From: a virus
Length of the DNA stretch: 64,000 nucleotides
Reading direction: 5' to 3' (one strand)
IMG/VR virus record: IMGVR_UViG_2816332652_000003
Location: 2,167 to 66,166 of that record
Shown: positions 1,810 to 24,680 of the stretch, piece after piece
How positions within the stretch are numbered: position 1 is the stretch's first letter
Layout: the number at the start of each line of letters is the position of its first letter
Notes under the pieces: generated by a model
The model's input: the letters and a program-made list of their open reading frames with translations, nothing else
Database searches by the model: none
Told to the model about the DNA's origin: nothing
Translations under genes and position numbers: made by a program

Positions 1810-2218
1810 TCAGCCTGACTTCTTGTCAGTTGTTGAAAGACAGATGCAGTTAACTGAAGCTCAAGGTATGGCAATTCGTGGTTTGGTGGATGGCATCAGA
1901 CAGATGCAAGAGGATGTAGCAGAAAAGGTTGGAGAAGTCCAAATGATGGTTCAGGAGGTCCGGGACAGCGTAACGCTGACGGATGCAGAATGCTACCAAC
2001 TCCAGTCTCTTGTTCGCAAGAAATCTAATGGACTGACCAAAGATCGCTATAAAGAGTCAGATGAGAAATTCAAGGATATGGTTGGTCGTTATCGTCGAAT
2101 GATCTGGAGTAAGTTGAAGGAAAGGTTTGAATTAGCGAAATACAGCCATGTACGGCGTATCGACTTTGATGATGCAGTTGATTTCATTAAGGAATTTCGT
2201 CCGGAAGATTATATCTGA
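1787..2218 (+). CDS. ORF6C-domain (antirepressor C-terminal-like) protein
   Basis: IWSKLKERFELAKYSHVRRIDFDDAVDFI matches the ORF6C pattern. Confidence 0.7.
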   Translation: MTTLMNPNQPDFLSVVERQMQLTEAQGMAIRGLVDGIRQMQEDVAEKVGEVQMMVQEVRDSVTLTDAECYQLQSLVRKKSNGLTKDRYKESDEKFKDMVGRYRRMIWSKLKERFELAKYSHVRRIDFDDAVDFIKEFRPEDYI

Positions 2219-2234
2219 GGGGAGTTGAAGAACA

Positions 2235-2342
2235 ATGGCTCACAAATTCATAACGCTTGACGATTTAGCCAGAATGTGGTCACACAAGCCGTTACAACAT
2301 GAGATACTCACTCGAAACATTGATCGGAAGAAGAAATTATGA
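2235..2342 (+). CDS. Small hypothetical protein (35 aa)
   Basis: RBS GAGGGG upstream; MAHKFITLDDLARMWSHKPLQHEILTRNIDRKKKL; stop overlaps the next ATG. Confidence 0.4.
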   Translation: MAHKFITLDDLARMWSHKPLQHEILTRNIDRKKKL

Positions 2343-2701
2343 TTACTGTTCCGCAGAAATTGCTTCAATCCAGAATCATGCGGAAGAAGTTAAGAAATTT
2401 GTATGATGACATCATCGATGCTGAAAAATTTGACCTTGATGACAGAGAGATAAGTATTGAAGCGGCGATTTTATCCGATAAGTTGGAGAGGCTAGAATCC
2501 TCCATTCGTAAAAATCGCAAATATCTCGGATTGGAATGGAAACCTCCAACGGGATATAAAGTGTCTGGAACAGTAATTGGGATATGTCAACTTTGCCAAA
2601 AGGAAATCTTCTCAGGGCAGAAAATTCCTGATCCAAATGAAGAAGGACTCTTTTGTAACTACTATTGCAGAAGAGTCTACCGCAACAACAGTATCAAATG
2701 A
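2339..2701 (+). CDS. Hypothetical phage protein with Cys motifs
   Basis: CQLC and CNYYC motifs; lies within the operon. Confidence 0.6.
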   Translation: MITVPQKLLQSRIMRKKLRNLYDDIIDAEKFDLDDREISIEAAILSDKLERLESSIRKNRKYLGLEWKPPTGYKVSGTVIGICQLCQKEIFSGQKIPDPNEEGLFCNYYCRRVYRNNSIK

Positions 2702-2778
2702 GTCCTTAGGTTAATCGTGCTACCAACACGATCAATTAACAATTCAACTAAACATGACTTTATCATAAATTTATTATT

Positions 2779-3210
2779 TTGCAAATATCTGCATTGAATG
2801 GAGTGCCTGCATTGTCTCTACAAAAACAATATACGCTAGGCGAGCTATACAGTTTAGCAGAACAGTGCAGTCACGATTATCCGGCTACACTGGCGCGGAA
2901 GATTGAGTATTTGACTGAGGTTCAAGTTTTGATAGGCCGTAGAGCTGCTGAGGCAGTGAGGGACTATAAACGTCTCTACGCTGAACGCAAACGTGTCTAT
3001 GACGAGGCATACATTGCAGCCGGTAAAGATAAAGCCCAGCGTGCTGAACTCGCCATTATCCAACTTCGCCTTCAGGAAGCTGATGCTGAGGCAGATAAGG
3101 TTCGCTGGCACAATGCAGTAGAAAGTAACGACCAAGTTATAAACTCATTAAAATACAGCCTGAAGGTTCTGCTGGCTGAGTACAACAATCCTGCCAGCGG
3201 CAGACGGTAG
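2779..3210 (+). CDS. Hypothetical coiled-coil phage protein (start uncertain)
   Basis: Helical ORF directly upstream of the replication initiator. Confidence 0.6.
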   Translation: MQISALNGVPALSLQKQYTLGELYSLAEQCSHDYPATLARKIEYLTEVQVLIGRRAAEAVRDYKRLYAERKRVYDEAYIAAGKDKAQRAELAIIQLRLQEADAEADKVRWHNAVESNDQVINSLKYSLKVLLAEYNNPASGRR

Positions 3211-3232
3211 GGCTGACAATGCGAGGTTAATC

Positions 3233-4270
3233 ATGGCTGAAATAAAATGGATCAAGCTCAGTGCGGACATGTTTAGCGATAGGAAAATTGAGCTTATCGA
3301 AGATATGCCCGAAGCTGACACGATTATTGTTATATGGATTAAGCTACTGACAATGACAGGACAAGCGAATATGGGAGGCTACATCATGTTGACTGAAACG
3401 ATCCCGTATACAGAAGAAATGCTGTTGTCTGCCATTAAGCGTCCCTTACCTGTTATAAAAATGGCTTTATCTATATTTGAAAGATTCGGAATGTTGGAAG
3501 TTTCCGAAAGCGGAGCTTACTTCCTTCCCAATTGGGAAAAACATCAAAACGTAGATGGAATGGACAAGGTTCGTGCGCAAACAAACAAGCGAGTGCAATC
3601 CTTCAGAGAAAGACAGAAGCTTCTTGAACCTGGCAAACGAAAATTGGAACAAAAAAGTAACGTTACAAGAAACGCTACAGGTAACGTTACAGTAACGCCC
3701 AGTAACGGAACAGAACTAGATTTAGAACAAGAAAAAGATAGTAGTTGTTGTTTATCGCCCGAGGCTGATAACAATTCAAAAGATGAGGGGATACCGTCTT
3801 CCCGGCAAGGTACCGTTCCTGCCACTCCTGAAACAGATACTGACTCTGAACAGGATGAAATATCATCCACCGAATTAGATTATCGCAACGCGGTTGCTAA
3901 CAAGTACTTGCAACGCAGGGGAAAGGGAATGGATATTTCTCCGGCTGATGAGATAAGCATTTCTGAATTGCTAAAAAATAAAGTCCCTTTGAAAACAGCT
4001 CTTGGAGGGATTGATAAGGCGTTTGATAACTTCAAGCCTAAACACTCCCGTGATGAAATTAGGAGTGTGAACTACTGCGCTACCGTGATTCTGGCTTTAC
4101 ATGCTCTGAACATGGAAAAACCAAAGCAAGAGCAAACGGTTGAGGTTGATGCAGTTTCAGTTTTACCTGAAGCTTCTGAAACCATGTCTGCTCATGAACC
4201 TAGTTCGCAGTATACAGAGAATGATCTTAAGAAAATGCTGGCTGAATTAAGAGCGAAACAAGGAGTGTGA
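3233..4270 (+). CDS. Phage replisome organiser / replication initiator
   Basis: MAEIKWIKLSADMFSDRKIELIEDMPEADTIIVIWIKLL is the Phage_rep_org_N signature. Confidence 0.9.
   Translation: MAEIKWIKLSADMFSDRKIELIEDMPEADTIIVIWIKLLTMTGQANMGGYIMLTETIPYTEEMLLSAIKRPLPVIKMALSIFERFGMLEVSESGAYFLPNWEKHQNVDGMDKVRAQTNKRVQSFRERQKLLEPGKRKLEQKSNVTRNATGNVTVTPSNGTELDLEQEKDSSCCLSPEADNNSKDEGIPSSRQGTVPATPETDTDSEQDEISSTELDYRNAVANKYLQRRGKGMDISPADEISISELLKNKVPLKTALGGIDKAFDNFKPKHSRDEIRSVNYCATVILALHALNMEKPKQEQTVEVDAVSVLPEASETMSAHEPSSQYTENDLKKMLAELRAKQGV
3657..3707. repeat. Iteron-like repeats, putative replication origin inside the rep gene
   Basis: GTAACGTTAC at 3657 and 3681; GTAACG at 3692 and 3702. An origin inside the rep gene is typical of lambdoid and Firmicute phages. 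Confidence 0.55.
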
Positions 4271-10666: not shown

Positions 10667-12063
10667 ATATACAGAAGGCAGGCATACCGATCAAAACGCT
10701 TCTGGCTCATTTTTGCAGGCATCGCGCTGCAAGCTGACTGTTAGTAAGATAATATAAATGAATATAGTACACTTTAACTAAAGGTGGTGATTAAATGATT
10801 CTAGCTAAAAAAGTTAGAATTCGACCAACTCCTGAGCAGGAGAAGCAGTTGTGGCGTTCGGCAGGGACGGCTCGCTGGGTCTACAACTTGACGCTTGCCC
10901 GGCAAATAGAGAATTACCAGAATGGCGGGAAGTTCTTGCACGATGGAGTACTGAGAAAAGAGTTGACGCAACTTAAGAAGCGAGAAGAATATGCTTGGCT
11001 GTACGATGTTTCCAACAATGTAGCAAAACAAGCCGTAAAAGATGCCTGCGATGCCTACAAGAAGATGTTCAAAGGACAATCCAAGAAACCGAAGTTCAAG
11101 ATCAAGAAGCGCTCCAAACCAGCGTTCTACAACGATACAGTCAAGTTCAAGGTCAAAGACAGTAAGGTCTTACTCGAAAAAATAGGCTGGGTGGCAACTT
11201 CTGAACAACTTCCAGAATCGGACAAGTACAGCAATCCGCGAGTATCATTTGACGGTAAGTATTGGTACGTATCCGTAGGTATTGAGCAGAAGCAAGAAAG
11301 CTCTGAACTGTCGGACGAGGCGATTGGTATTGATGTAGGTATTAAAGAACTGGCGGTCTGTAGTAACGGAATGGTCTTTAAGAACATCAACAAGACAGCC
11401 GCCGTAAGAAAGACGGAGAAACGATTGCGGAGGTTGCAACGCAAAGTGTCCCGCAAATATGAAATGAATAAGGAAGGAAGCCGTTTCGTCAAGACATGTA
11501 ACATTGTAAAAGTCGAAAATTCCATTCGTTTGCTTCATCGGAGAATAACTAATATTCGCGGCAATCACATCCATCAAGCAACAAACGCAATAGCGAAAAC
11601 CAAGCCTAGCGCTGTTGTGATGGAAGACTTGAATGTTAAAGGGATCATGAAGAACCGATACTTAAGTAAAGCAATTGCAGGGCAAAAACTGCATGAGTTT
11701 ACCCGACAAATGAAATACAAGTGTGAGAAGATAGGCGCAAGGTTTATCCAAGCCGACAGGTGGTTCTCTTCATCGAAATTGTGTTCGTGTTGTGGGCGGA
11801 TCAAGAAAGACTTGAAATTATCTGATCGTACCTATGAATGCGATTGCGGATTCATTATTGACCGAGATATGAACGCGGCAATCAATTTATCTAAATTGGC
11901 GAATTAACACTTACACGTTATCGCTGATATGTAGGATTCGTTGTATCCGAATTTACGCCCTTGGAGTGTTATATCAAACAAAAGTAGTCTCTGGACAAAA
12001 TTGGGCACGAGGAAAAGGGAAGCAAACAAGGATTGTGTAGATTTATACAACTCTTGGCAACGG
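10667..12063 (+). mobile_element. Non-autonomous IS607-type element (tnpB only, no tnpA); left end inferred
   Basis: The right end terminates in ...CTTGGCAACGG (12063), as IS607-family ends typically do. The left end is placed after AAGGAGGG (10659-10666). No transposase ORF is present. Confidence 0.6.
10795..11907 (+). CDS. tnpB: TnpB RNA-guided endonuclease, catalytic residues intact
   Basis: N-terminal HTH; RuvC-I IGIDVG, RuvC-II VMEDL, Zn finger CSCC..CDC, RuvC-III DRDMNAAIN. Confidence 0.95.
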   Translation: MILAKKVRIRPTPEQEKQLWRSAGTARWVYNLTLARQIENYQNGGKFLHDGVLRKELTQLKKREEYAWLYDVSNNVAKQAVKDACDAYKKMFKGQSKKPKFKIKKRSKPAFYNDTVKFKVKDSKVLLEKIGWVATSEQLPESDKYSNPRVSFDGKYWYVSVGIEQKQESSELSDEAIGIDVGIKELAVCSNGMVFKNINKTAAVRKTEKRLRRLQRKVSRKYEMNKEGSRFVKTCNIVKVENSIRLLHRRITNIRGNHIHQATNAIAKTKPSAVVMEDLNVKGIMKNRYLSKAIAGQKLHEFTRQMKYKCEKIGARFIQADRWFSSSKLCSCCGRIKKDLKLSDRTYECDCGFIIDRDMNAAINLSKLAN

Positions 12064-12904: not shown

Positions 12905-13732
12905 TTGAATCTTGACGATGATTCTAAAATAAGTCTATTAAGAATTACATTAGGTTATTTAGAAAAAGAATTAAATCGAAAGAAAAATGAAGTGGAGATG
13001 CTAAAGCAGATGCATCAAAACATTAATAAGCTCGGGGCTAAGTTGGAAAGTGTCTTAGTTTTAAATAAATTAGCCACCAAATTAACCATGAATTCTTACT
13101 TTATCCACGCTACTCCGAAAGTCACATATGATGGAATATCGAAGAAAAGACCGGGTGGTATAGAATTTGGAGATGTTCTGTACATTTATACTGAAGGTGA
13201 TAAGCAAAATAAGATTAGAGAGAATGCGATGCTGTATCAGGCAAAATTGTTTAGTTCCAGTAAAGTAGATGAACATCAATTGAAGTTGTATACTAAATGG
13301 TCGCCTTTTAGTCTCCTTAAAGAAAAAAATCGAAAATATGTGTTGAATACTAATTCAAATCCTCATCCAGGAGCGAGATATCTACTCCTAGATACTAGTA
13401 CACTGAACAAAAAATTCGCTTCAACTATGACACCAGAAGATAATCTTAGAGCAAATCGAAATGATAGCTATTTAGAGAATGATTTAGTTGGGTTGTTAGA
13501 TTTTAGTAGAGGGAAAGAGCTGACAGGAGAGTGGGGGGATGCAATAAACAAAGTTAGGGACGAGATAATAACTAATAATCTTTCTAAAAGTGGGTTCGTA
13601 AAAAATCAAGCTCTGTCTTTATTATCAGAAGGACAAGATAATAATTTGAATGAAGAGATTATGAAAAATGTTGATGTAAAAGGTTTTTGGTTAATACATA
13701 TAGTATCTGAAGTGAGTAACACTGTAGATTAA
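12905..13732 (+). CDS. Accessory AT-rich protein with a PD-(D/E)XK-like motif
   Basis: EFGDVLYIY...AMLYQAK; noticeably AT-richer than its neighbours. Confidence 0.55.
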   Translation: MNLDDDSKISLLRITLGYLEKELNRKKNEVEMLKQMHQNINKLGAKLESVLVLNKLATKLTMNSYFIHATPKVTYDGISKKRPGGIEFGDVLYIYTEGDKQNKIRENAMLYQAKLFSSSKVDEHQLKLYTKWSPFSLLKEKNRKYVLNTNSNPHPGARYLLLDTSTLNKKFASTMTPEDNLRANRNDSYLENDLVGLLDFSRGKELTGEWGDAINKVRDEIITNNLSKSGFVKNQALSLLSEGQDNNLNEEIMKNVDVKGFWLIHIVSEVSNTVD

Positions 13733-13774
13733 GTATAGACTAATGAAAAAGTGTAGTTTGTTTGTAGTAAATCC

Positions 13775-13793
13775 ATGTTATCTTAAATCCATA
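13775..13793 (+). promoter_or_regulatory. Late-promoter-like motif, copy 1
   Basis: ATGTTATCTTAAATCCATA (TGn + -10-like hexamer + CATA); similar motifs at 19306 and 22428. Confidence 0.45.
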
Positions 13794-13807
13794 TAATAAC
13801 GTATTCG

Positions 13808-13836
13808 AAAAGGTCGCTCATTCGAGCGGCCTTTTT
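13808..13836 (+). terminator. Intrinsic terminator-like hairpin
   Basis: AAAAGGTCGCTC-ATTC-GAGCGGCCTTTTT. Confidence 0.75.
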
Positions 13837-13853
13837 GCATTGGAGGAAAGAGT

Positions 13854-14024
13854 ATGGAAGTTAACTATTACAGTAGGAATGAGCCAGCTATACCCGGAGT
13901 TTCGGATAAGCAGCCAGAGCAGTGTCGTGGTTGTGGTTGGGGGACATGGACGGGAGTGAATCAATTATGTATTATGCCGAGATGTTGGAAGGAGAACCAT
14001 GATCCAGAGAAGGTGATGAAATGA
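13854..14024 (+). CDS. Cys-rich micro-protein, copy 1 (56 aa)
   Basis: RBS GGAGG; KQPEQCRGCGWGTWTGVNQLCIMPRC; stop overlaps the recombinase ATG. Confidence 0.65.
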   Translation: MEVNYYSRNEPAIPGVSDKQPEQCRGCGWGTWTGVNQLCIMPRCWKENHDPEKVMK

Positions 14025-14581
14025 GAAAAGTACAGCCGATCCGCGATGAACGGGTTATAGATGGAATGAAAGAATACTTCTATATACGAAGTAAGCGAAA
14101 TTACTTATTTTTTTGTATGGGCATATACAGCGGACTTCGAGTATCTGACTTGCTCGAACTCAAGGCGTGGCAAACTAAAGGGACCCATATCAGTATGGTT
14201 GAGCAGAAAAATAAGCATGCGAAGACTTTTATTATCCATCCGAGTATAAGAGAGGATCTGGACGAATTCACTGCTGACATGCGACCAACTGATTATCTGT
14301 TTGCTAGTCGTCAGATTAAAACGATCAGCCGTATGCGAAATAAACCGATCGATCGGACAACTGCCTATCGTTTTTTACACGAAGCAGCTCAGGAATTCAG
14401 GTTAAAGGATATCGGAGTCCATTCATTGCGGAAGACATGGGCATATAGGCTCTACATGGACAATCCTGAGAACCTAGCGTTACTAATGGATATGTTTGGA
14501 CACAGCGATCCAAGGGAGACTTTGGACTATATCGGGCTGACTCAGGACATGATGGACAAGGCAATCTTGAATTTGAGGTGA
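14021..14581 (+). CDS. Small tyrosine recombinase (catalytic domain only, XerC/D-like)
   Basis: GLRVSDLL (R), HSLRKT (HxxR), FGHS, and Tyr in TLDYIG. Confidence 0.92.
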   Translation: MRKVQPIRDERVIDGMKEYFYIRSKRNYLFFCMGIYSGLRVSDLLELKAWQTKGTHISMVEQKNKHAKTFIIHPSIREDLDEFTADMRPTDYLFASRQIKTISRMRNKPIDRTTAYRFLHEAAQEFRLKDIGVHSLRKTWAYRLYMDNPENLALLMDMFGHSDPRETLDYIGLTQDMMDKAILNLR

Positions 14582-14586
14582 ATTTA

Positions 14587-14701
14587 GTGCAACACAATAC
14601 GGTTTATATTGCACTCATTTTTCAATTAGGAAGACATTAGATGAAGAAACATGTTTTTTCATGCCTGAAATGAGTGCAACAGAATTACCTTTATGTTTCA
14701 C
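14587..14701 (+). repeat. Two directly repeated dif/lox-like 11-6-11 sites
   Basis: GTGCAACACAA-TACGGT-TTATATTGCAC (14587-14614) and GTGCAACAGAA-TTACCT-TTATGTTTCAC (14674-14701), 87 bp apart. Confidence 0.7.
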
Positions 14702-14843
14702 TCAACTTACATTATTTAGTGAATATGAGTACAGAACAACAGCCTGCGATTCAGACGGAGGCTTATTTTGATTCGTAACGTTTGACTATTACTGACCTTA
14801 AATAGGAATTCCAACTCAATTACATGAAAGTGGTGATAATTTT

Positions 14844-15572
14844 GTGAGCAGGAAGCAGAATCCGAATCGTAAGAAGGCGTTCAAAATTTGGAAAGATAGT
14901 GGCGCTGTGATGAAGCCGAAAGAGATTGCGGAAAAGTTGGGCATCACATCTGAGTCAGTCCGGAAGTGGAAGTCACTTGATCAATGGGAAGGAAAGATGG
15001 CGAATGCTAAACCCGGTGCTCCTCGTGGCAATCAGAATGCTAAAGGTAATCGAGGTGGTAAAGGCGGTCCGCTCGGGAATCAGAAAGCTGTAACACATGG
15101 ATTGTTCCGTAAGTTCGAGCCGCAAGATCCTGAGTATTTAGAACTCATAGATATTGTTCAGCAAATGGAACCTATAGACATGATCTGGCATAACATCACT
15201 CAGGGATTCCGTAAAATCATTTGGGCGCAGCGTATCTTCTTCATCAAAGACAAAGAGGATATGACGAAAGAGTTGAAAAGGGAGAAACCAGGTGAGTATG
15301 GAGACGAATACGAATGGGAAATTCAATTCGCTTGGGATAAATATGCGAGTTTCATCAAGGCAGAGGCTACAGTCATGCGTGAGATCAGGGGAGCTATCAA
15401 ACAATTCCTTGATATCGCGCCGCAGGAAGATGAGCGCCGATTGAAACTGGATCAGATGCAGGCCAAAGTCGAGAAAACCCGCCTTGAGATTGAAAAACTG
15501 AAGAATGGTGATGGAGATACCGAGGATGATCTGATCGAAGATTGGGTGAAGGCGGTGGAAACTGGTGAGTAA
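14844..15572 (+). CDS. terS: Terminase small subunit
   Basis: N-terminal HTH (KEIAEKLGITSESVRKWK), GAPRGNQNA motif; overlaps terL. Confidence 0.88.
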   Translation: MSRKQNPNRKKAFKIWKDSGAVMKPKEIAEKLGITSESVRKWKSLDQWEGKMANAKPGAPRGNQNAKGNRGGKGGPLGNQKAVTHGLFRKFEPQDPEYLELIDIVQQMEPIDMIWHNITQGFRKIIWAQRIFFIKDKEDMTKELKREKPGEYGDEYEWEIQFAWDKYASFIKAEATVMREIRGAIKQFLDIAPQEDERRLKLDQMQAKVEKTRLEIEKLKNGDGDTEDDLIEDWVKAVETGE

Positions 15573-17019
15573 AGAGTCTCCACAAACTAAACGCAGATTC
15601 GCTGCATTCAAAAAACGTATTCCCGAGTACCGGAAGAATCCGGTTCTTTTTTGCGTGGAATTACTGAAATTTACTCCTGATGAGTGGCAAGCAGAAGTAA
15701 TGATGGACATAGCTGGAGGTCCGCGAGTGTCGGTGCGATCTGGACAGGGTGTTGGAAAGACCGGCCTTGAGGCTGCGGTGGCATTATGGTTCCTATCGTG
15801 CTTCCCGTTTCCGAAGGTTATCTGTACTGCACCGACTCGTCAGCAGTTGCATGATGTCTTATGGGCTGAGATTAGCAAATGGCAAGAGAAAAGTCCGTTG
15901 CTTAAACGGATACTCAAATGGACAAAGACTAAGATTTACATGCGAAATTATGAGGAACGCTGGTTTGCTACAGCCCGGACAGCTACCAAGCCCGAGAACA
16001 TGCAGGGTTTCCATGAGGACTACATGCTCTTTATTGTGGACGAAGCTTCCGGGGTTGAAGATCGTATCATGGAGGCTATCCTGGGGACGCTCTCGGGTGA
16101 ATTTAATAAGCTGCTAATGTGCGGGAACCCAACTCGGACCAGTGGTGTATTCTATGACTCTCACAACAGGGACCGGGCAGATTACAACACGCACAAAGTT
16201 TCCTGTCTGAACAGTCCTCGGACAAGTAAAGAGAACATAGCCATGCTTGAACGAAAATATGGTAAAGGATCTGATGTATGGCGTGTCCGAGTTGAAGGGG
16301 AGTTTCCGCGGGGCGAGTCAGAAACCTTTATCGCTCTGGAAGTGGCTGAGTTTGCTACCAAAGATGTAACCTTGGAACCGTCTGGAGATACCTTAACCAT
16401 CGGCTGTGACGTTGCCCGTTTTGGTGATGATGAAACATCTATGTACGCGGGGATAGGCCCAGTAACAGTTGGGCAGCATCATCATTTCAAGAAAGACACA
16501 ATGGTTACTGCTGGCTGGGTGTTGAACTTAATAAGAGAATTGCTTCCGCAGTTTCCAGAAGTCGTTCATACGAGAATCAGGATAGATGATACAGGTGTCG
16601 GTGGTGGTGTGACTGATCGGTTGAATGAAGTAATAGCAGAAGAAGGACTTCCGTATGAATTAGTTCCAATAAATAATGGATCGTCATCTTTGGATGAACA
16701 TTATGGAAACCTGGGCGCAGAAATGTGGGCGCATATAAAGGGACAACTGGAACAAAACATGAGCAATTATATAAACAATGAGTCCGCGGTCTTACAACTT
16801 CCTGATGATGATGTATTGACCTCCCAATTGACTACGAGAAAATGGTCAATGACCAGCAAAGGTAAGATACTTCTTGAAAGCAAGAAGGATATGAAAAAAC
16901 GTGGTCTCAAGTCACCGGATAGGGCTGACGCATACGTTCTCACCTTTGGTGAATATTTGCTGGGGGCACCTCAGTCAATAATGCTTCCAACAATAGGAGG
17001 TGTATCAATAAAAAGATAA
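15565..17019 (+). CDS. terL: Terminase large subunit (resembles the P1 PacB type)
   Basis: VRSGQGVGKT, LFIVDEASGV, GNPTRTSGVFYDSH, nuclease IGCDVARFGDD, SPDRADA. Confidence 0.95.
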   Translation: MSKESPQTKRRFAAFKKRIPEYRKNPVLFCVELLKFTPDEWQAEVMMDIAGGPRVSVRSGQGVGKTGLEAAVALWFLSCFPFPKVICTAPTRQQLHDVLWAEISKWQEKSPLLKRILKWTKTKIYMRNYEERWFATARTATKPENMQGFHEDYMLFIVDEASGVEDRIMEAILGTLSGEFNKLLMCGNPTRTSGVFYDSHNRDRADYNTHKVSCLNSPRTSKENIAMLERKYGKGSDVWRVRVEGEFPRGESETFIALEVAEFATKDVTLEPSGDTLTIGCDVARFGDDETSMYAGIGPVTVGQHHHFKKDTMVTAGWVLNLIRELLPQFPEVVHTRIRIDDTGVGGGVTDRLNEVIAEEGLPYELVPINNGSSSLDEHYGNLGAEMWAHIKGQLEQNMSNYINNESAVLQLPDDDVLTSQLTTRKWSMTSKGKILLESKKDMKKRGLKSPDRADAYVLTFGEYLLGAPQSIMLPTIGGVSIKR

Positions 17020-17089
17020 CAAGAAACTTTGAAATCATATTAAGAGGGAGGGTGATTATAAAGTAACTTGAATCTTCAATAAAACTGAT

Positions 17090-17435: not shown

Positions 17436-19154
17436 TTATCCTTTAATGAAATCTTGCAGTTCGCTCTTAAAGAATTCCAATTTTTCTGGAGTGTTGTTTA
17501 ACACTAATTCAGTCAGTTCCATTCCATGAACTATTTTATTGTAGTGTAAAGAGTAACTTTCAAATAAGCGTTCTAACACTTCACTTCCAACGACATCTTT
17601 TAATACATTTGTAGAACCTTTTTTAGGGAATAATTTATTGTCATCGATTGATAATAATAAATGGTCGATTTTGCTCTTTATTAGATCTGGATCTGCAGCA
17701 GCTATTGATAAATTTCGATTAATGATTTCAGAAAGCTCATGATAACAGTCTAAAAAGTAGTTCTCGTACTCTCGTCGTCCCAAGATAATTATACTATCTC
17801 CATAGCTTTCTCTTAATGTGAGAAGTTTTTCGTCGGTTTTGTTATCTGCATCAATAATTATTTTATAAGGTATTGGACTCTCTGATATGCCACTTAGAAT
17901 TAAGTCAAGTTTGCCTTTATACGCTCGCATAGAAGAATTCTTATTAAAATAATTACCAGTTCCCTTCATATTTAATATTCTGTAATTATAACCAATCTGT
18001 TTTAAGCCGAAATGAGTGAGGATCATCGGAATTACAAGTTCCTCAGTTTGTCCTTCTACAAATATTACTTTATCAGATAAAGCAAAGTCACTATTACTAA
18101 CACCTATATCAGACAACACTTCTTGAATATGTTCTAACTGTGTGAAGGAACTTATCCCATTCAACTTACTTACATGAATTAAATATTTATCAGATGGATA
18201 ATTAATTAAAATAGGGGAATGCGTAGTGAATACAAACTGGTGTTCATTGCTATCGCTTACTAAATCATAGATGGCCTTCTCGGCAGAAGGATGTAAGAAT
18301 ACTTGTGGCTCATCAAATAGAACTATACTGTTTTCTTTTGTATAGAGTACACACAATAGTAATAAAACGTGAGTATAGCCACTTCCGCAATCTGATAAGG
18401 GAATTGGCGTATCTAAGCCTTCGAAGGATACACTTATAAAAGTCTGGTTACCTCCATCAATAGGAGTCCTAATAGTTATAACGTCAGTAAATATTTGTTT
18501 AAACGTTTCCACAATTTTATCAAAAGTTTCTTCTTCATTATTGTGCATAGAGTAAAGAAACCCATTAAGATTTGTCCCATCAATTTTTAAGTAATTGTTT
18601 AAAGTTGAAGTCTCAGTCGAAGGTACATGTCTAGAACCAGTTATATAAACAATTTTCTTGTTTAAAAGGTTCATGAAATTAGAAATAAATGTACTATTGG
18701 GGACTAATACGCTGTCTTCTTGATCGGGTATCACGAACATATATTTTGGAGCTACTCCAACTTTATGATAATTACTGTTAATGTAAACATCTTGAAAATG
18801 ATCGTTGTAGTATCCTTGTACTTTATTAAAAACTGTCACATTATGACTATTGAAATATCTTAAAAAAAGTCTGAACTTTTCTGAATACTGGATTGTAAAT
18901 CCTGGAGGTACATTATCATTTAGATAATTTACTTCTTCGTCTGACAAGGATAATTCTAATTCAATTTCGGTTGATTGAGTATCTAAGGCCGGGGAGTTTA
19001 GCATACCTTGTAGAACTTTATACAACGCTTCAATGAAAGCTGATTTACCTGTATTATTTTTACCTGCTAAAACATTCATTTTATTATGTAATTTAATCTC
19101 TCCTGAATCATCGATACTTTTGTGATTTTTAATACGAACGTTAAGAATTATCAT
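17436..19154 (-). CDS. OLD-family ABC-ATPase + TOPRIM nuclease (candidate anti-phage gene)
   Basis: Walker A GKNNTGKS, signature LSDCGSG, Walker B LFDEP, H-loop TTHSP, TOPRIM VEGQTEE and IIDAD; start set at ATG 19154 with its RBS. Confidence 0.88.
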   Translation of the reverse strand: MIILNVRIKNHKSIDDSGEIKLHNKMNVLAGKNNTGKSAFIEALYKVLQGMLNSPALDTQSTEIELELSLSDEEVNYLNDNVPPGFTIQYSEKFRLFLRYFNSHNVTVFNKVQGYYNDHFQDVYINSNYHKVGVAPKYMFVIPDQEDSVLVPNSTFISNFMNLLNKKIVYITGSRHVPSTETSTLNNYLKIDGTNLNGFLYSMHNNEEETFDKIVETFKQIFTDVITIRTPIDGGNQTFISVSFEGLDTPIPLSDCGSGYTHVLLLLCVLYTKENSIVLFDEPQVFLHPSAEKAIYDLVSDSNEHQFVFTTHSPILINYPSDKYLIHVSKLNGISSFTQLEHIQEVLSDIGVSNSDFALSDKVIFVEGQTEELVIPMILTHFGLKQIGYNYRILNMKGTGNYFNKNSSMRAYKGKLDLILSGISESPIPYKIIIDADNKTDEKLLTLRESYGDSIIILGRREYENYFLDCYHELSEIINRNLSIAAADPDLIKSKIDHLLLSIDDNKLFPKKGSTNVLKDVVGSEVLERLFESYSLHYNKIVHGMELTELVLNNTPEKLEFFKSELQDFIKG

Positions 19155-19305
19155 TATCTCTACCTCTATTCTTTTTCTATTAAACACAACAATACCATTA
19201 TAGTCCATCTTAGTATGTAATTAAGAGAGTGAATTATTGACCCAAATGAGAACCCTACATGACCTCGTTTAGAGATCATGTTGAACCCCACAAGACTATT
19301 TTCCC

Positions 19306-20339: not shown

Positions 20340-20495
20340 GTGATCAGCAGCAGAAGACGGAAGAAGCAACGCATCCGTCTCAACAAGCAGCCAGAGAAAT
20401 GCAAAGGATGTGTATGGGGTAGATGGGATGGAGTGAAGCAGTTCTGTAGTAGACCTGTCTGCCCAAAAGAGGTAAAATATCCCTATCATATTTGA
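20340..20495 (+). CDS. Cys-rich micro-protein, copy 2 (51 aa, GTG start)
   Basis: Preceded by a terminator and GGAGG; KQPEKCKGCVWGRWDGVKQFCSRPVC. Confidence 0.65.
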   Translation: MISSRRRKKQRIRLNKQPEKCKGCVWGRWDGVKQFCSRPVCPKEVKYPYHI

Positions 20496-22209: not shown

Positions 22210-22213
22210 TACA

Positions 22214-22396
22214 AGAAAATACTCAATGAACAGCAAGGGTAAGATATTACTTGAAAGTAAAAAGAACATGAAGAAGCGCGGATTAAAATCACCGGACAGA
22301 GCTGACGCATATGTTCTCACCTTCGGTGAATATTTGATGGGAACACCACAGTCTATAATGCTTCCGTCAATAAGTAGTATGTCAATAAAAAGGTAA
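22214..22396 (+). pseudogene. Second, diverged copy of the terL 3' end (60 codons)
   Basis: 51 of 60 residues identical to the TerL C-terminus; many additional synonymous differences. Confidence 0.92.
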
Positions 22397-22427
22397 ACTG
22401 AAGATTCGATATCTCAGTCTTATAGTA

Positions 22428-22877: not shown

Positions 22878-24209
22878 ATGAAATTTTTATTTCCTGGTTA
22901 TTATAAACTTACTAACGTTGAATTAAGAGAATTGTGGGAAAGATGTAATTTTGTACTTGACACTAATACTCTGCTTAATCTTTTTAGATACCCAAAAGAA
23001 ACGAGTAACGTTATGTTGAAATTGCTCGAAAGTATTAAAGATAGGATTTGGATTCCGCATCAAGTAGCGCTAGAGTATCATAGAAATCTGGAAACGGTAT
23101 TATATGAACAAAAGAATGAGTACGAAACTCTTGAGAAAGAATGTATGTCTGAACTTTCTAAACTTATTTCAAAATTTAAAAAATTAAGACATTCTCATAT
23201 AAGTACTAATACTATGGTGCAGACATTAGAACAAAGTAGTGAAATCATAAGAAAAGAATTATCAAATCAACGTGAACAGCAACCTGATTTACAGGAAATA
23301 AAAAAAAGAATCAACAACTTGGTAGGAGAAAATATAGGATCACAATTTGAACAAGCTGAGTTGGTTAAAATATTCGCAGAGGGGGCTCAAAGGTACGGAA
23401 ATAAAGTCCCTCCTGGATATATGGATTCTAAGAAAAACTTCTCTTACCTTCATAATGGTATTGAATATCAGGCAGCATATGGAGATTTGATTTTTTGGAA
23501 ACAGACTCTAAAATACGCTCAAAATAAAGAGGTTAGTTCTATCATTTTAGTAAGCGATGATAGAAAAGAAGATTGGATTCTAGAAGTATCTGGTGAGAAA
23601 AAAGGAATACATCCGTACTTAACAAATGAATTTCATGATCAAAGCAAAGGTAAGTTATTTAACTCGTATAACTCTGTTCAATTTATTAGTGAAGCTGAGC
23701 ATTTTTTAGGATTTAAGAGTAGTGCAATTGTAAGTGATGTCATAAAGGAAATTGAAACTGTTTATAGTAAGGCGGATTCTTTCAAGGATAGTGAGAATCT
23801 AACTTATAATAATACTTTTAAGGAAAAATATAATTATAGAGAAAGACTCTATGATCATTATCTTGAAGATAAAAAGCGCAGAATAGGTGAAACAGAGTTT
23901 TACTTTTATAAATTTTTCTTTGACGTGAGTAAATCTTTTGTTGAAACAGAGGAAAGGAACAGCAATTCAGTTTATAATTCTAATAATCATAACGCTTTCC
24001 CAGTTATACTTAAAAAAATTGTAAAAGATTATATTATTAATGCCGAAATAGTTGAGATCAAATATGAAGGCGAATTTCTTACTGTAATAGTTGCAACTCC
24101 TTTTGAATTTGAATATTCTTCAATAGATAATCTAGCGGAAGCTATTAGTAAAGAAATGAATCAATACTATACTGAAGAAACTATTAGATTATTAAGAATA
24201 TTTGTCTAG
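22878..24209 (+). CDS. PIN-like domain protein (DUF4935 type), candidate defence RNase
   Basis: FVLDTNTLL, IWIPHQVALEY, YGDLIFW, VSDDRKEDW. Confidence 0.85.
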   Translation: MKFLFPGYYKLTNVELRELWERCNFVLDTNTLLNLFRYPKETSNVMLKLLESIKDRIWIPHQVALEYHRNLETVLYEQKNEYETLEKECMSELSKLISKFKKLRHSHISTNTMVQTLEQSSEIIRKELSNQREQQPDLQEIKKRINNLVGENIGSQFEQAELVKIFAEGAQRYGNKVPPGYMDSKKNFSYLHNGIEYQAAYGDLIFWKQTLKYAQNKEVSSIILVSDDRKEDWILEVSGEKKGIHPYLTNEFHDQSKGKLFNSYNSVQFISEAEHFLGFKSSAIVSDVIKEIETVYSKADSFKDSENLTYNNTFKEKYNYRERLYDHYLEDKKRRIGETEFYFYKFFFDVSKSFVETEERNSNSVYNSNNHNAFPVILKKIVKDYIINAEIVEIKYEGEFLTVIVATPFEFEYSSIDNLAEAISKEMNQYYTEETIRLLRIFV

Positions 24210-24590: not shown

Positions 24591-24680
24591 ATGCAACCAG
24601 ACAAATGCAAAGGTCTCGTATGGGGCAGATGGGATGGAGTAAAGCAGTTTTGTAGTAATCCCTTTTTTTGAAAAATTTAA
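24591..24680 (+). pseudogene. Cys-rich micro-gene, copy 3 (degenerate)
   Basis: MQPDKCKGLVWGRWDGVKQFCSNP; the second Cys is replaced by Leu and the last Cys is missing. Confidence 0.7.

Follow-up and report, generated by a model that had tools for sequence, protein, structure and literature searches.

The stretch of DNA that we analyzed, hereafter the window, comprises 64,000 nucleotides (nt) of the virus record IMGVR_UViG_2816332652_000003 (positions 2,167 to 66,166), an IMG/VR provirus of 67.5 kb that represents a Paenibacillus-type prophage. Between the early and late modules of this phage lie a gene for an unusually small tyrosine recombinase, which we call the mini recombinase, and two dyad sequences that resemble the dif sites of Xer recombinases. 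The gap between the TGA stop codon of the gene and site 1 is 5 nt, the first base of the site being the sixth after the stop. The parts of the locus are as follows, with positions counted along the window:

14021–14581, plus strand: mini tyrosine recombinase of 186 amino acids (aa), catalytic domain only, with the full set R40, K63, H134, R137, H161 and Y170
14586–14616, no strand: site 1, a dyad with arms at 14587–14597 and 14604–14614 and the spacer TACGGT at 14598–14603
14617–14672, no strand: inter-site segment, which holds the motif TA.ATGAA..AAC (~14638–14650), invariant in 11 relatives
14673–14703, no strand: site 2, a dyad with arms at 14674–14684 and 14691–14701 and the spacer TTACCT at 14685–14690
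14702–14720, no strand: conserved stretch of 19 nt that continues site 2 rightward, CA..TTACATTATTTAG, and at which homology with distant relatives stops

The product of the recombinase gene belongs to the tyrosine recombinase superfamily, as judged by its match to Pfam PF00589 (Phage_integrase; residues 24–173, 3.7e-16, 59.8 bits against a cut-off of 27.1), its R-K-H-x-x-R-H/W-Y set and its catalytic-domain fold. A preliminary description of this DNA had already recognized an intact 186-aa recombinase with an R-HxxR-H-Y set and no arm-binding domain, and our analysis upholds both points and adds K63 to the set. All 105 homologues compared (39–99% identity) share the six residues R40, K63, H134, R137, H161 and Y170, which implies that recombinase chemistry is under selection. 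An AlphaFold2 model built with 26 homologues as input (predicted local distance difference test, 89; predicted template-modelling score, 0.86) consists of the catalytic domain alone, with neither an arm-binding nor a core-binding domain. The best solved-structure matches of the model are archaeal XerA, the integron integrase IntI4, XerH, and the isolated catalytic domains of the HP1 and P2 integrases; the Foldseek probability was 1.00 for XerA, IntI4, XerH, HP1 and Cre, of which Cre is a distant fold match (E ~5e-5, 11–15% identity). Because the same record carries a separate full-length integrase (a 408-aa open frame at its left end), the mini enzyme is a second recombinase and not the phage integrase. 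No serine recombinase was found in the record.

Within the superfamily, the protein falls in the family of PHROG_216, named 'integrase', which it matches over residues 1–185 (1e-48). The nearest reviewed or named relative, Bacillus subtilis YoeC (UniProt O35009; 181 aa, 38% identity, template-modelling (TM) score 0.84), belongs to the same family and is entered as 'probable integrase/recombinase'. Like the other members of this YoeC-like family, the window protein is co-linear over its full length, is ~180–190 aa long and has no N-terminal DNA-binding domains; 208 database proteins match it at E <= 1e-10, and among the best 120 nearly all are 185–198 aa. Its NCBIfam matches to XerA, XerS, XerD, XerC and FimE-type invertases are weak, all lying far under the cut-offs (XerA, 43.3 bits against 220; XerS, 42.2 against 267; XerD, 40.7 against 329.6), which places it outside the Xer families. 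In its architecture the enzyme resembles FimB and FimE, which likewise consist of a catalytic domain only (~200 aa), and FimE aligns co-linearly over residues 1–172 of 198 (TM score 0.70 by query and 0.67 by hit). However, the match to NCBIfam PRK09871 (positions 25–172 of 198) scores 25.6 bits against a cut-off of 222, and the Fim sites are inverted, have identical cores and flank an invertible promoter, whereas the spacers here match neither way.

Each of the two sites has complementary bases at 9 of 11 arm positions, and the distance from site 1 to site 2 is 87 bp, about eight helical turns. Both have the form of an Xer/dif site, that is, a 28-bp target with an 11-6-11 layout and conserved inner arm bases, and the inner bases of site 2 (AGAA/TTATGT) are those of B. 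subtilis dif; for the site family as a whole, a 10-8-10 reading is equally possible. The sequences of B. subtilis dif and the other dif sites used for this comparison are those printed in PMC3025954, and the dif sequences given in the preliminary description agree with them. A degenerate whole-site pattern matches the 64-kb window at sites 1 and 2 only, with 0.01 matches expected by chance. The presence of two 11-6-11 sites with the spacers TACGGT and TTACCT behind the gene was thereby confirmed, but their reading as a direct repeat stands only in part: 19 of 22 arm positions match in the direct orientation and 18 of 22 in the inverted one, such that the relative orientation is weakly defined, and in relatives from the B. 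cereus group the inverted reading fits slightly better than the direct one. The two spacers match in neither orientation.

Because a nucleotide search of the phage collection with positions 13800–15000 returned no match, relatives were sought through the recombinase protein. Conservation of the sites beside homologues, which had been set in advance as the test of their significance, was then evident both among close relatives and across clades. In 11 IMG/VR relatives (69–99% protein identity), both sites and the distance between them are kept 3′ of the gene; site 2 and its spacer are nearly constant, and site 1 has conserved outer arms around a variable centre and spacer. A scan of one genome per species gave at least 600 candidate stretches, at least 579 of which had a mini-recombinase relative. 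In IMG/VR, the locus has 476 representatives of the B. cereus type and 94 of the Streptococcus type. Across 97 loci, strict site-2-like sites accumulate directly behind the gene, with 33 in the first 200 nt after the stop and at most 3 per 100-nt bin elsewhere, and at least one relaxed site is present in 51 of the 97, as compared with 13% of control segments.

The sequence of the arms shifts with the recombinase clade (Paenibacillus, B. cereus group, Streptococcus and small plasmids), and the two-site layout (84–88 bp apart) and the dif-like inner bases persist across clades. The Paenibacillus clade has GTGCAAC arms in sites 87 bp apart. In the B. cereus group, each of the four half-sites has an AGTTAC arm, and the distance within the pair is invariably 84 bp, including in loci where an insertion has shifted the pair 0.75–2.5 kb from the gene. 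In Streptococcus, an invariant 28-bp site 2 with ATTTAAC arms is found in 79 of 80 loci, with a degenerate site 1 ~88 bp upstream, and phi105 and several other genera fit the same two-site scheme. In every locus examined, the spacer of site 1 differs from that of site 2, so the inequality seen in the window is a family-wide feature that, by its sequence, should block recombination between site 1 and site 2, as had been proposed at the outset. Four half-sites that co-vary by clade beside a clade-specific recombinase have the look of a cognate protein–DNA pair, and the two dif-like sequences are very probably the targets of the mini recombinase.

Several other readings of the sites were considered and rejected. 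As RNA hairpins they fold weakly (−6 and −10 kcal/mol) and have no U tract, and the arm changes in relatives are not compensatory. A sigma-A −10 box in the site-2 spacer TATAAG, a form found in many relatives, is contradicted by the B. cereus spacers TACAAG, TTAAAC and TAGAAC and by the Paenibacillus spacers, in which A2 and T6 are not kept. When positions 13600–14950 were scanned for promoters and terminators, matches were no more frequent than in shuffled sequence and the site region contained no sigma-70-type promoter, and a hairpin at 14741–14763 is too weak (z = −0.87) to be convincing as a terminator. An invertible switch is at odds with spacers that match in neither orientation and with the ~175 related loci examined, all of which are co-linear, with no flipped inter-site segment. 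A hairpin resolvase of the protelomerase type is at odds with spacers that are not self-complementary (TACGGT, TTACCT and TATAAG) and with a protein of 186 aa, which is not a large multi-domain enzyme.

The region between the sites holds short conserved sequences of its own. The motif TA.ATGAA..AAC of the window and its relatives may bind a host or phage factor. A different motif, AAGG(G)ATTCAGCGATT, lies just 5′ of site 2 in both phi105 (locus L015, ~3130–3190) and B. cereus phages, the recombinases of which are far diverged, and is absent from the clade of the window; it may bind a further factor. In two Streptococcus loci from IMG/VR (L222 and L235), a second copy of the right arm ATATGTTAAAT follows 12 nt downstream, and TGTAAG takes the place of the usual spacer TATAAG, perhaps a scar of an aberrant event at site 2.

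The likeness to dif raises the question of whether the host Xer system (XerCD or XerS), as exploited by elements of the IMEX (integrative mobile element exploiting Xer) kind, acts on the sites in place of the mini recombinase. The inner arm bases do equal those of dif, and the right arm of the Streptococcus site 2 equals the XerD arm of E. coli dif at 10 of 11 bases. Nonetheless, the arms follow the clade of the phage recombinase and not the dif site of the host, the prophage is integrated elsewhere by its own integrase with the sites intact inside it, and a search of 10 host genomes (five of the Paenibacillus type and five of the B. cereus group) found no chromosomal partner site with the same arms, except beside mini-recombinase genes. 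We therefore consider action by the host enzymes extremely unlikely. The lack of a partner site in the host genomes also leaves the site with a single kind of available partner, its counterpart on a second copy of the element or on a related one.

Homologues of the mini recombinase are also common outside phages. We found 650 plasmid records with full-length homologues (33–62% identity), and such a module is common in both the phages and the plasmids of Gram-positive bacteria. In the Planococcus plasmid pNM11 (11.4 kb), RepL and Rep flank the gene, and a perfect 11-6-11 site lies 233 bp upstream of it. The Macrococcus plasmid pMP21332_1 (13.7 kb; L271, 589–1630) has three 11-6-11 sites, with the spacers TATAAA, TGGTAA and TGCTAA. 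A recombinase and its site next to plasmid replication genes is the typical look of a multimer-resolution system, and by analogy the phage module may be read as the same machine.

We favor, with a probability of roughly 0.55, the reading that the gene and its two sites form an autonomous module of the Xer/dif or Cre/lox kind that recombines site 2 with site 2, and that its likely job is the resolution of multimers. How the protein would bind, where it would cut, which site would serve for crossover and what the module would do for the phage we infer as follows. Two recombinase monomers would bind each dyad site, so that the four half-sites of a locus would share one arm sequence. Cleavage would flank a centre of 6 bp, or possibly of 8 bp, and strand exchange would pair equivalent sites of two genome copies, joining one site 2 to another; the difference between their spacers would keep site 1 and site 2 from recombining with each other. 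Of the two, site 2 is the better conserved and would be the crossover site. Site 1, which is degenerate and variable in relatives and looks less like a second crossover site with a specificity of its own, as the preliminary description had proposed, is probably an accessory site to which the same protein would bind, as in multi-subsite resolution sites. The module would thereby interconvert or resolve multimers of circular, replicating phage DNA, as expected of the plasmid homologues, and exchange of late halves between related phages with compatible copies of site 2 would be a side effect.

Such a module would combine features of several known systems. The IRS of Tn4430, on which TnpI acts, and the res sites of serine resolvases consist of a crossover core plus extra sites for the same protein. 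The arrangement here is alike in having a core and extra sites within ~115 bp beside the recombinase gene, and differs in that the accessory element is a second complete dyad site. Systems with a single Xer recombinase, namely XerS/difSL of streptococci and lactococci, XerH/difH and archaeal XerA/dif, are alike in linking one tyrosine recombinase to its own dyad site of ~28–31 bp; they also share with our locus the 11-6-11 geometry and the dif-like inner bases, and XerA and XerH are among the structural matches and XerA, XerS and XerD the top NCBIfam matches of the mini recombinase. In contrast, those recombinases are ~290–360 aa long, whereas the mini recombinase is 186 aa, lacks the core-binding domain and reaches 43 bits against a cut-off of at least 220; and Xer systems have one site at the replication terminus and are activated by FtsK, whereas here there are two, on a phage, between the early and late modules.

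Several considerations weigh against the favored reading. In the literature we found no functional study of the mini-recombinase family, no tested function for YoeC or PHROG_216, and no demonstrated binding or recombination for any member, and for the 'second integrase' of phIS3501, the homologue p22, the role has been called unclear (PMC3335513). It is not obvious that an integrating phage that packages concatemers needs multimer resolution. Many genera share the conserved site-2 spacer TATAAG, a uniformity that self-recombination alone would not demand. Of the 20 sequencing runs that contain the stretch, all as contigs, we examined four; the identical short contigs of these four public runs showed no recombinant joints, although contigs are blind to rare events. 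Finally, the coupling of the gene to late activators in relatives and the placement of the sites where a late promoter would be expected suit a regulatory role as well.

In such a regulatory or architectural role, the protein would bind both in-phase sites, perhaps looping the ~85 bp between them, and would gate or insulate late transcription, recombination being rare or irrelevant. This would account for the position of the sites between the gene for the late activator or recombinase and terS, for the translational coupling of the recombinase gene to ArpU-like or sigma-like late-activator genes in many relatives, and for the conserved spacing of 84–88 bp (about eight helical turns). The synapse of two sites with unequal spacers would be unproductive, and the intergenic region lacks a sigma-70-type promoter. 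There is also a precedent for a repressor with an integrase fold, SroF of SPbeta-like phages (10.1101/2025.11.27.690993). SroF, however, lacks the catalytic tyrosine and binds an asymmetric operator as a monomer (10.1101/2025.11.27.690993), whereas the catalytic set is invariant here in all 105 homologues and the sites are dyads with a 6-bp centre. Moreover, the plasmid homologues that have the same kind of site adjoin replication genes and no late operon, and the B. cereus spacers TACAAG, TTAAAC and TAGAAC misfit a −10 box. We accordingly consider a mainly regulatory role unlikely, and return to recombination at site 2 and to the traces that it might have left.

Site 2 coincides with sharp boundaries in the mosaic genomes of these phages. 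In the clade of the window, comparison of the window and loci L002 and L003 with loci L004, L005, L006 and L012 shows identity rising from ~78% to 93–96% between −1 and +5 relative to the site-2 spacer. The position of the crossover can be narrowed no further than 14684–14720, since the right arm and the 19 nt that follow are conserved in any case. Homology with distant relatives breaks at +35 from the start of the site-2 spacer. In the B. cereus group, 46 prophages with near-identical recombinases have 34 unrelated right-hand sequences, and homology stops at +16 to +20, the outer end of the right arm. The Streptococcus 28-bp site forms an invariant island amid variable flanks, beside recombinases that are 54–99% identical.

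These boundaries fit site-specific exchange of late halves or cargo, without amounting to proof of it. Taken further, they could mean that site 2 is a population-wide crossover point at which related phages swap their late halves, with virion and host-range genes, or gain cargo. This reading can also draw on a locus (L112) with a 1.2-kb reverse-strand gene between two site-2 copies of the same spacer, on the three sites of the Macrococcus plasmid, which bound small modules, and on the likeness to integron attI or to the dif modules of Acinetobacter plasmids, where, according to two reports (PMC6449649, PMC13141974), pdif sites bound discrete, variable DNA modules. The sharp boundary at site 2 and the three Macrococcus sites resemble such modules; pdif modules nevertheless use host XerC and XerD, whereas the element here brings its own mini recombinase and normally has one site pair per phage. 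Any conserved island can become a hotspot of relaxed homologous recombination in mosaic phages, so a boundary is no proof, and the pairs compared are not independent events; for these two reasons we keep exchange as a rival reading or a side effect. In addition, site 2 is duplicated in only 1 of 80 loci, the 0.75–2.5-kb insertions near site 1 end in inverted repeats of their own and not in recombinase sites, and recent exchange is not apparent between two prophages that share both a spacer and a host genome. Population-wide exchange as the primary function is therefore doubtful in our view. Similarly improbable is its strongest form, in which the site pair would be a 'universal joint' of phages, a mini-Xer system serving mainly to swap late halves at one base-pair position with occasional capture of a cassette; if it were true, mosaicism at the early/late junction would be enzyme-driven and programmed, and not an accident of homologous or illegitimate recombination. 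Multimer resolution and exchange of the late module, both of which the preliminary description had raised, thus remain live readings, with resolution favored.

The individual loci show further rearrangements around the sites. In L112, a B. cereus-group locus from IMG/VR (~2155–3375), a second site 2 with the same spacer TATAAG, preceded by a motif like that between the sites, lies 1.19 kb downstream of the first, and the two copies flank a reverse-strand gene for a 281-aa protein with an Excalibur-like C terminus; this looks like a cassette between directly repeated sites. In many B. cereus-group loci (L111, L113, L117, L118, L120, L123, L137, L141, L152, L153, L157, L158 and others), insertions of 0.75–2.5 kb lie between the recombinase stop and site 1, carrying a cold-shock-like protein, small membrane proteins or an acetyltransferase-like open reading frame (ORF). 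They are bounded by inverted repeats of ~25–38 bp (GGGGTATCGCCAGCATTTT...) with an apparent TA duplication, no transposase was seen in them, and in every case 5 bp separate their end from the left arm of site 1. This geometry recalls that of IS1202-family elements, which PMC10132070 describes as inserting 5 bp from pdif sites. A sequence resembling a hybrid site, at the left end of these B. cereus insertions, was dismissed, its resemblance belonging to the terminal inverted repeat of the insertion itself. In Paenibacillus thermotolerans, two co-resident prophages of one genome (L030 and L032) share the site-2 spacer TATATG, though Paenibacillus spacers vary widely; both have a motif similar to the 14702–14720 extension, and their right flanks are 54–65% identical, with no sign of recent exchange. 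In the Macrococcus plasmid pMP21332_1, the three sites delimit small gene modules 5′ of the plasmid's mini recombinase, an arrangement reminiscent of dif modules.

Downstream of the sites lie the packaging genes:

14844–15572, plus strand: terminase small subunit (terS; PF10668 4.7e-17, PHROG_509 7.5e-67, NCBIfam NF040601 1.4e-60), the first packaging gene after the sites
15565–17019, plus strand: terminase large subunit (terL; PHROG_2 1e-46), the ATPase half of which is distantly like that of P1 PacB

This neighborhood underlay the suggestion of the preliminary description that the recombinase would, like Cre at loxP, cyclize terminally redundant DNA packaged by the headful once it had been injected. 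The gene and a site do adjoin the packaging genes, P1 provides the precedent, and the three TerL motifs that had suggested PacB are present at residues 59, 159 and 189. The likeness itself proved real but distant, being confined to the ATPase half (residues 15–266 of 484; tblastn against P1 pacB, 7e-24, 29% identity), and terminases of Parageobacillus and Bacillus B83 are much closer (55–62%). The position of the sites speaks against cyclization: they lie upstream of terS, and rightward packaging from terS would, by the logic of pac systems, leave one copy in an early headful. The module is present, moreover, in cos phages (in SM1, a cos site is annotated 0.7 kb downstream), in Listeria and B. 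cereus phages that bear HNH genes, and on small plasmids. The proposed tie to pac is thus not supported, and we consider cyclization very unlikely.

Other aspects of Cre/loxP remain instructive. Both systems have a phage-encoded tyrosine recombinase with an adjacent site near packaging genes and need no host site, and Cre/loxP resolves multimers of a circular replicon, as we propose for the mini-recombinase module. The locus nevertheless does not have the build of Cre/loxP. Cre has two domains and 343 aa, and loxP is a single 13-8-13 site, as against one domain and paired 11-6-11 sites here; and the P1 prophage is a plasmid, whereas this phage uses an integrase of its own to integrate and carries its module at a position relative to pac that is ill-suited to cyclization.

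On the other side of the recombinase gene, the window has the following features:

13806–13837, plus strand: stem-loop, an inverted repeat, followed by a T run and resembling an intrinsic terminator (fold −21.5 kcal/mol, z = −4.6, 0 of 200 shuffles as good)
13854–14024, plus strand: ORF for a Cys-rich protein of 56 aa (CxxC...C...C), the stop codon of which overlaps the recombinase start (ATGA)

The stem-loop thus stands just 5′ of the Cys-rich ORF and the recombinase gene. Immediately 5′ of it, at 13768–13797, is a tandem repeat, TAAATCCAT(G/A)T.AT, whose second copy contains TATAAT; the whole of 13768–13837 could serve as a leader, with promoter and attenuator, that precedes the Cys gene, the recombinase gene and the late operon. 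The Cys-rich protein had no match in searches of Pfam, PHROG and NCBIfam families, and the same small protein precedes the recombinase in the closest relatives (L004, L006, L008 and L020). Two further diverged copies or relics of this micro-gene (13910–13974) are found between terL and the portal gene, at 20387–20451 and 24593–24657; terL itself has its 3′ end repeated (16833–17036 and 22210–22413). The 9.7 kb between these repeats holds a gene for an OLD-family ATPase/TOPRIM protein (17436–19208, minus strand) and a PIN_8 gene (22878–24209), and this stretch looks like a region of stacked defence cargo. In the early region of the prophage, at 10795–11907 (plus strand), is a gene of the IS605-family OrfB/TnpB type with a Cas12f-like TNB domain (PHROG_506, 3e-115).

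A tyrosine recombinase with an adjacent dyad site is a well-known kind of system, and its chemistry is ordinary. We found no description in the literature, however, of an enzyme reduced to the catalytic domain that is paired with a conserved, dif-like locus of two sites at the junction of the early and late regions in temperate phages of Gram-positive bacteria. If our reading is correct, hundreds of temperate phages from Bacillus, Paenibacillus, Streptococcus (pneumococcal prophages among them), Listeria and Clostridium, together with many Gram-positive plasmids, carry an uncharacterized minimal recombinase-plus-site system, and a tyrosine recombinase can recognize and recombine a dif-like site without a core-binding domain. 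The module would then explain the 'second integrase' that has repeatedly been flagged as puzzling in phage genome papers, and it would offer a concrete, testable mechanism by which a mosaic boundary as sharp as that between the early and late regions could arise. It is experimentally tractable, with model systems at hand in phi105 of B. subtilis, SM1 and pneumococcal prophages, and a 186-aa recombinase with a 28-bp site could become a compact tool for genome engineering.

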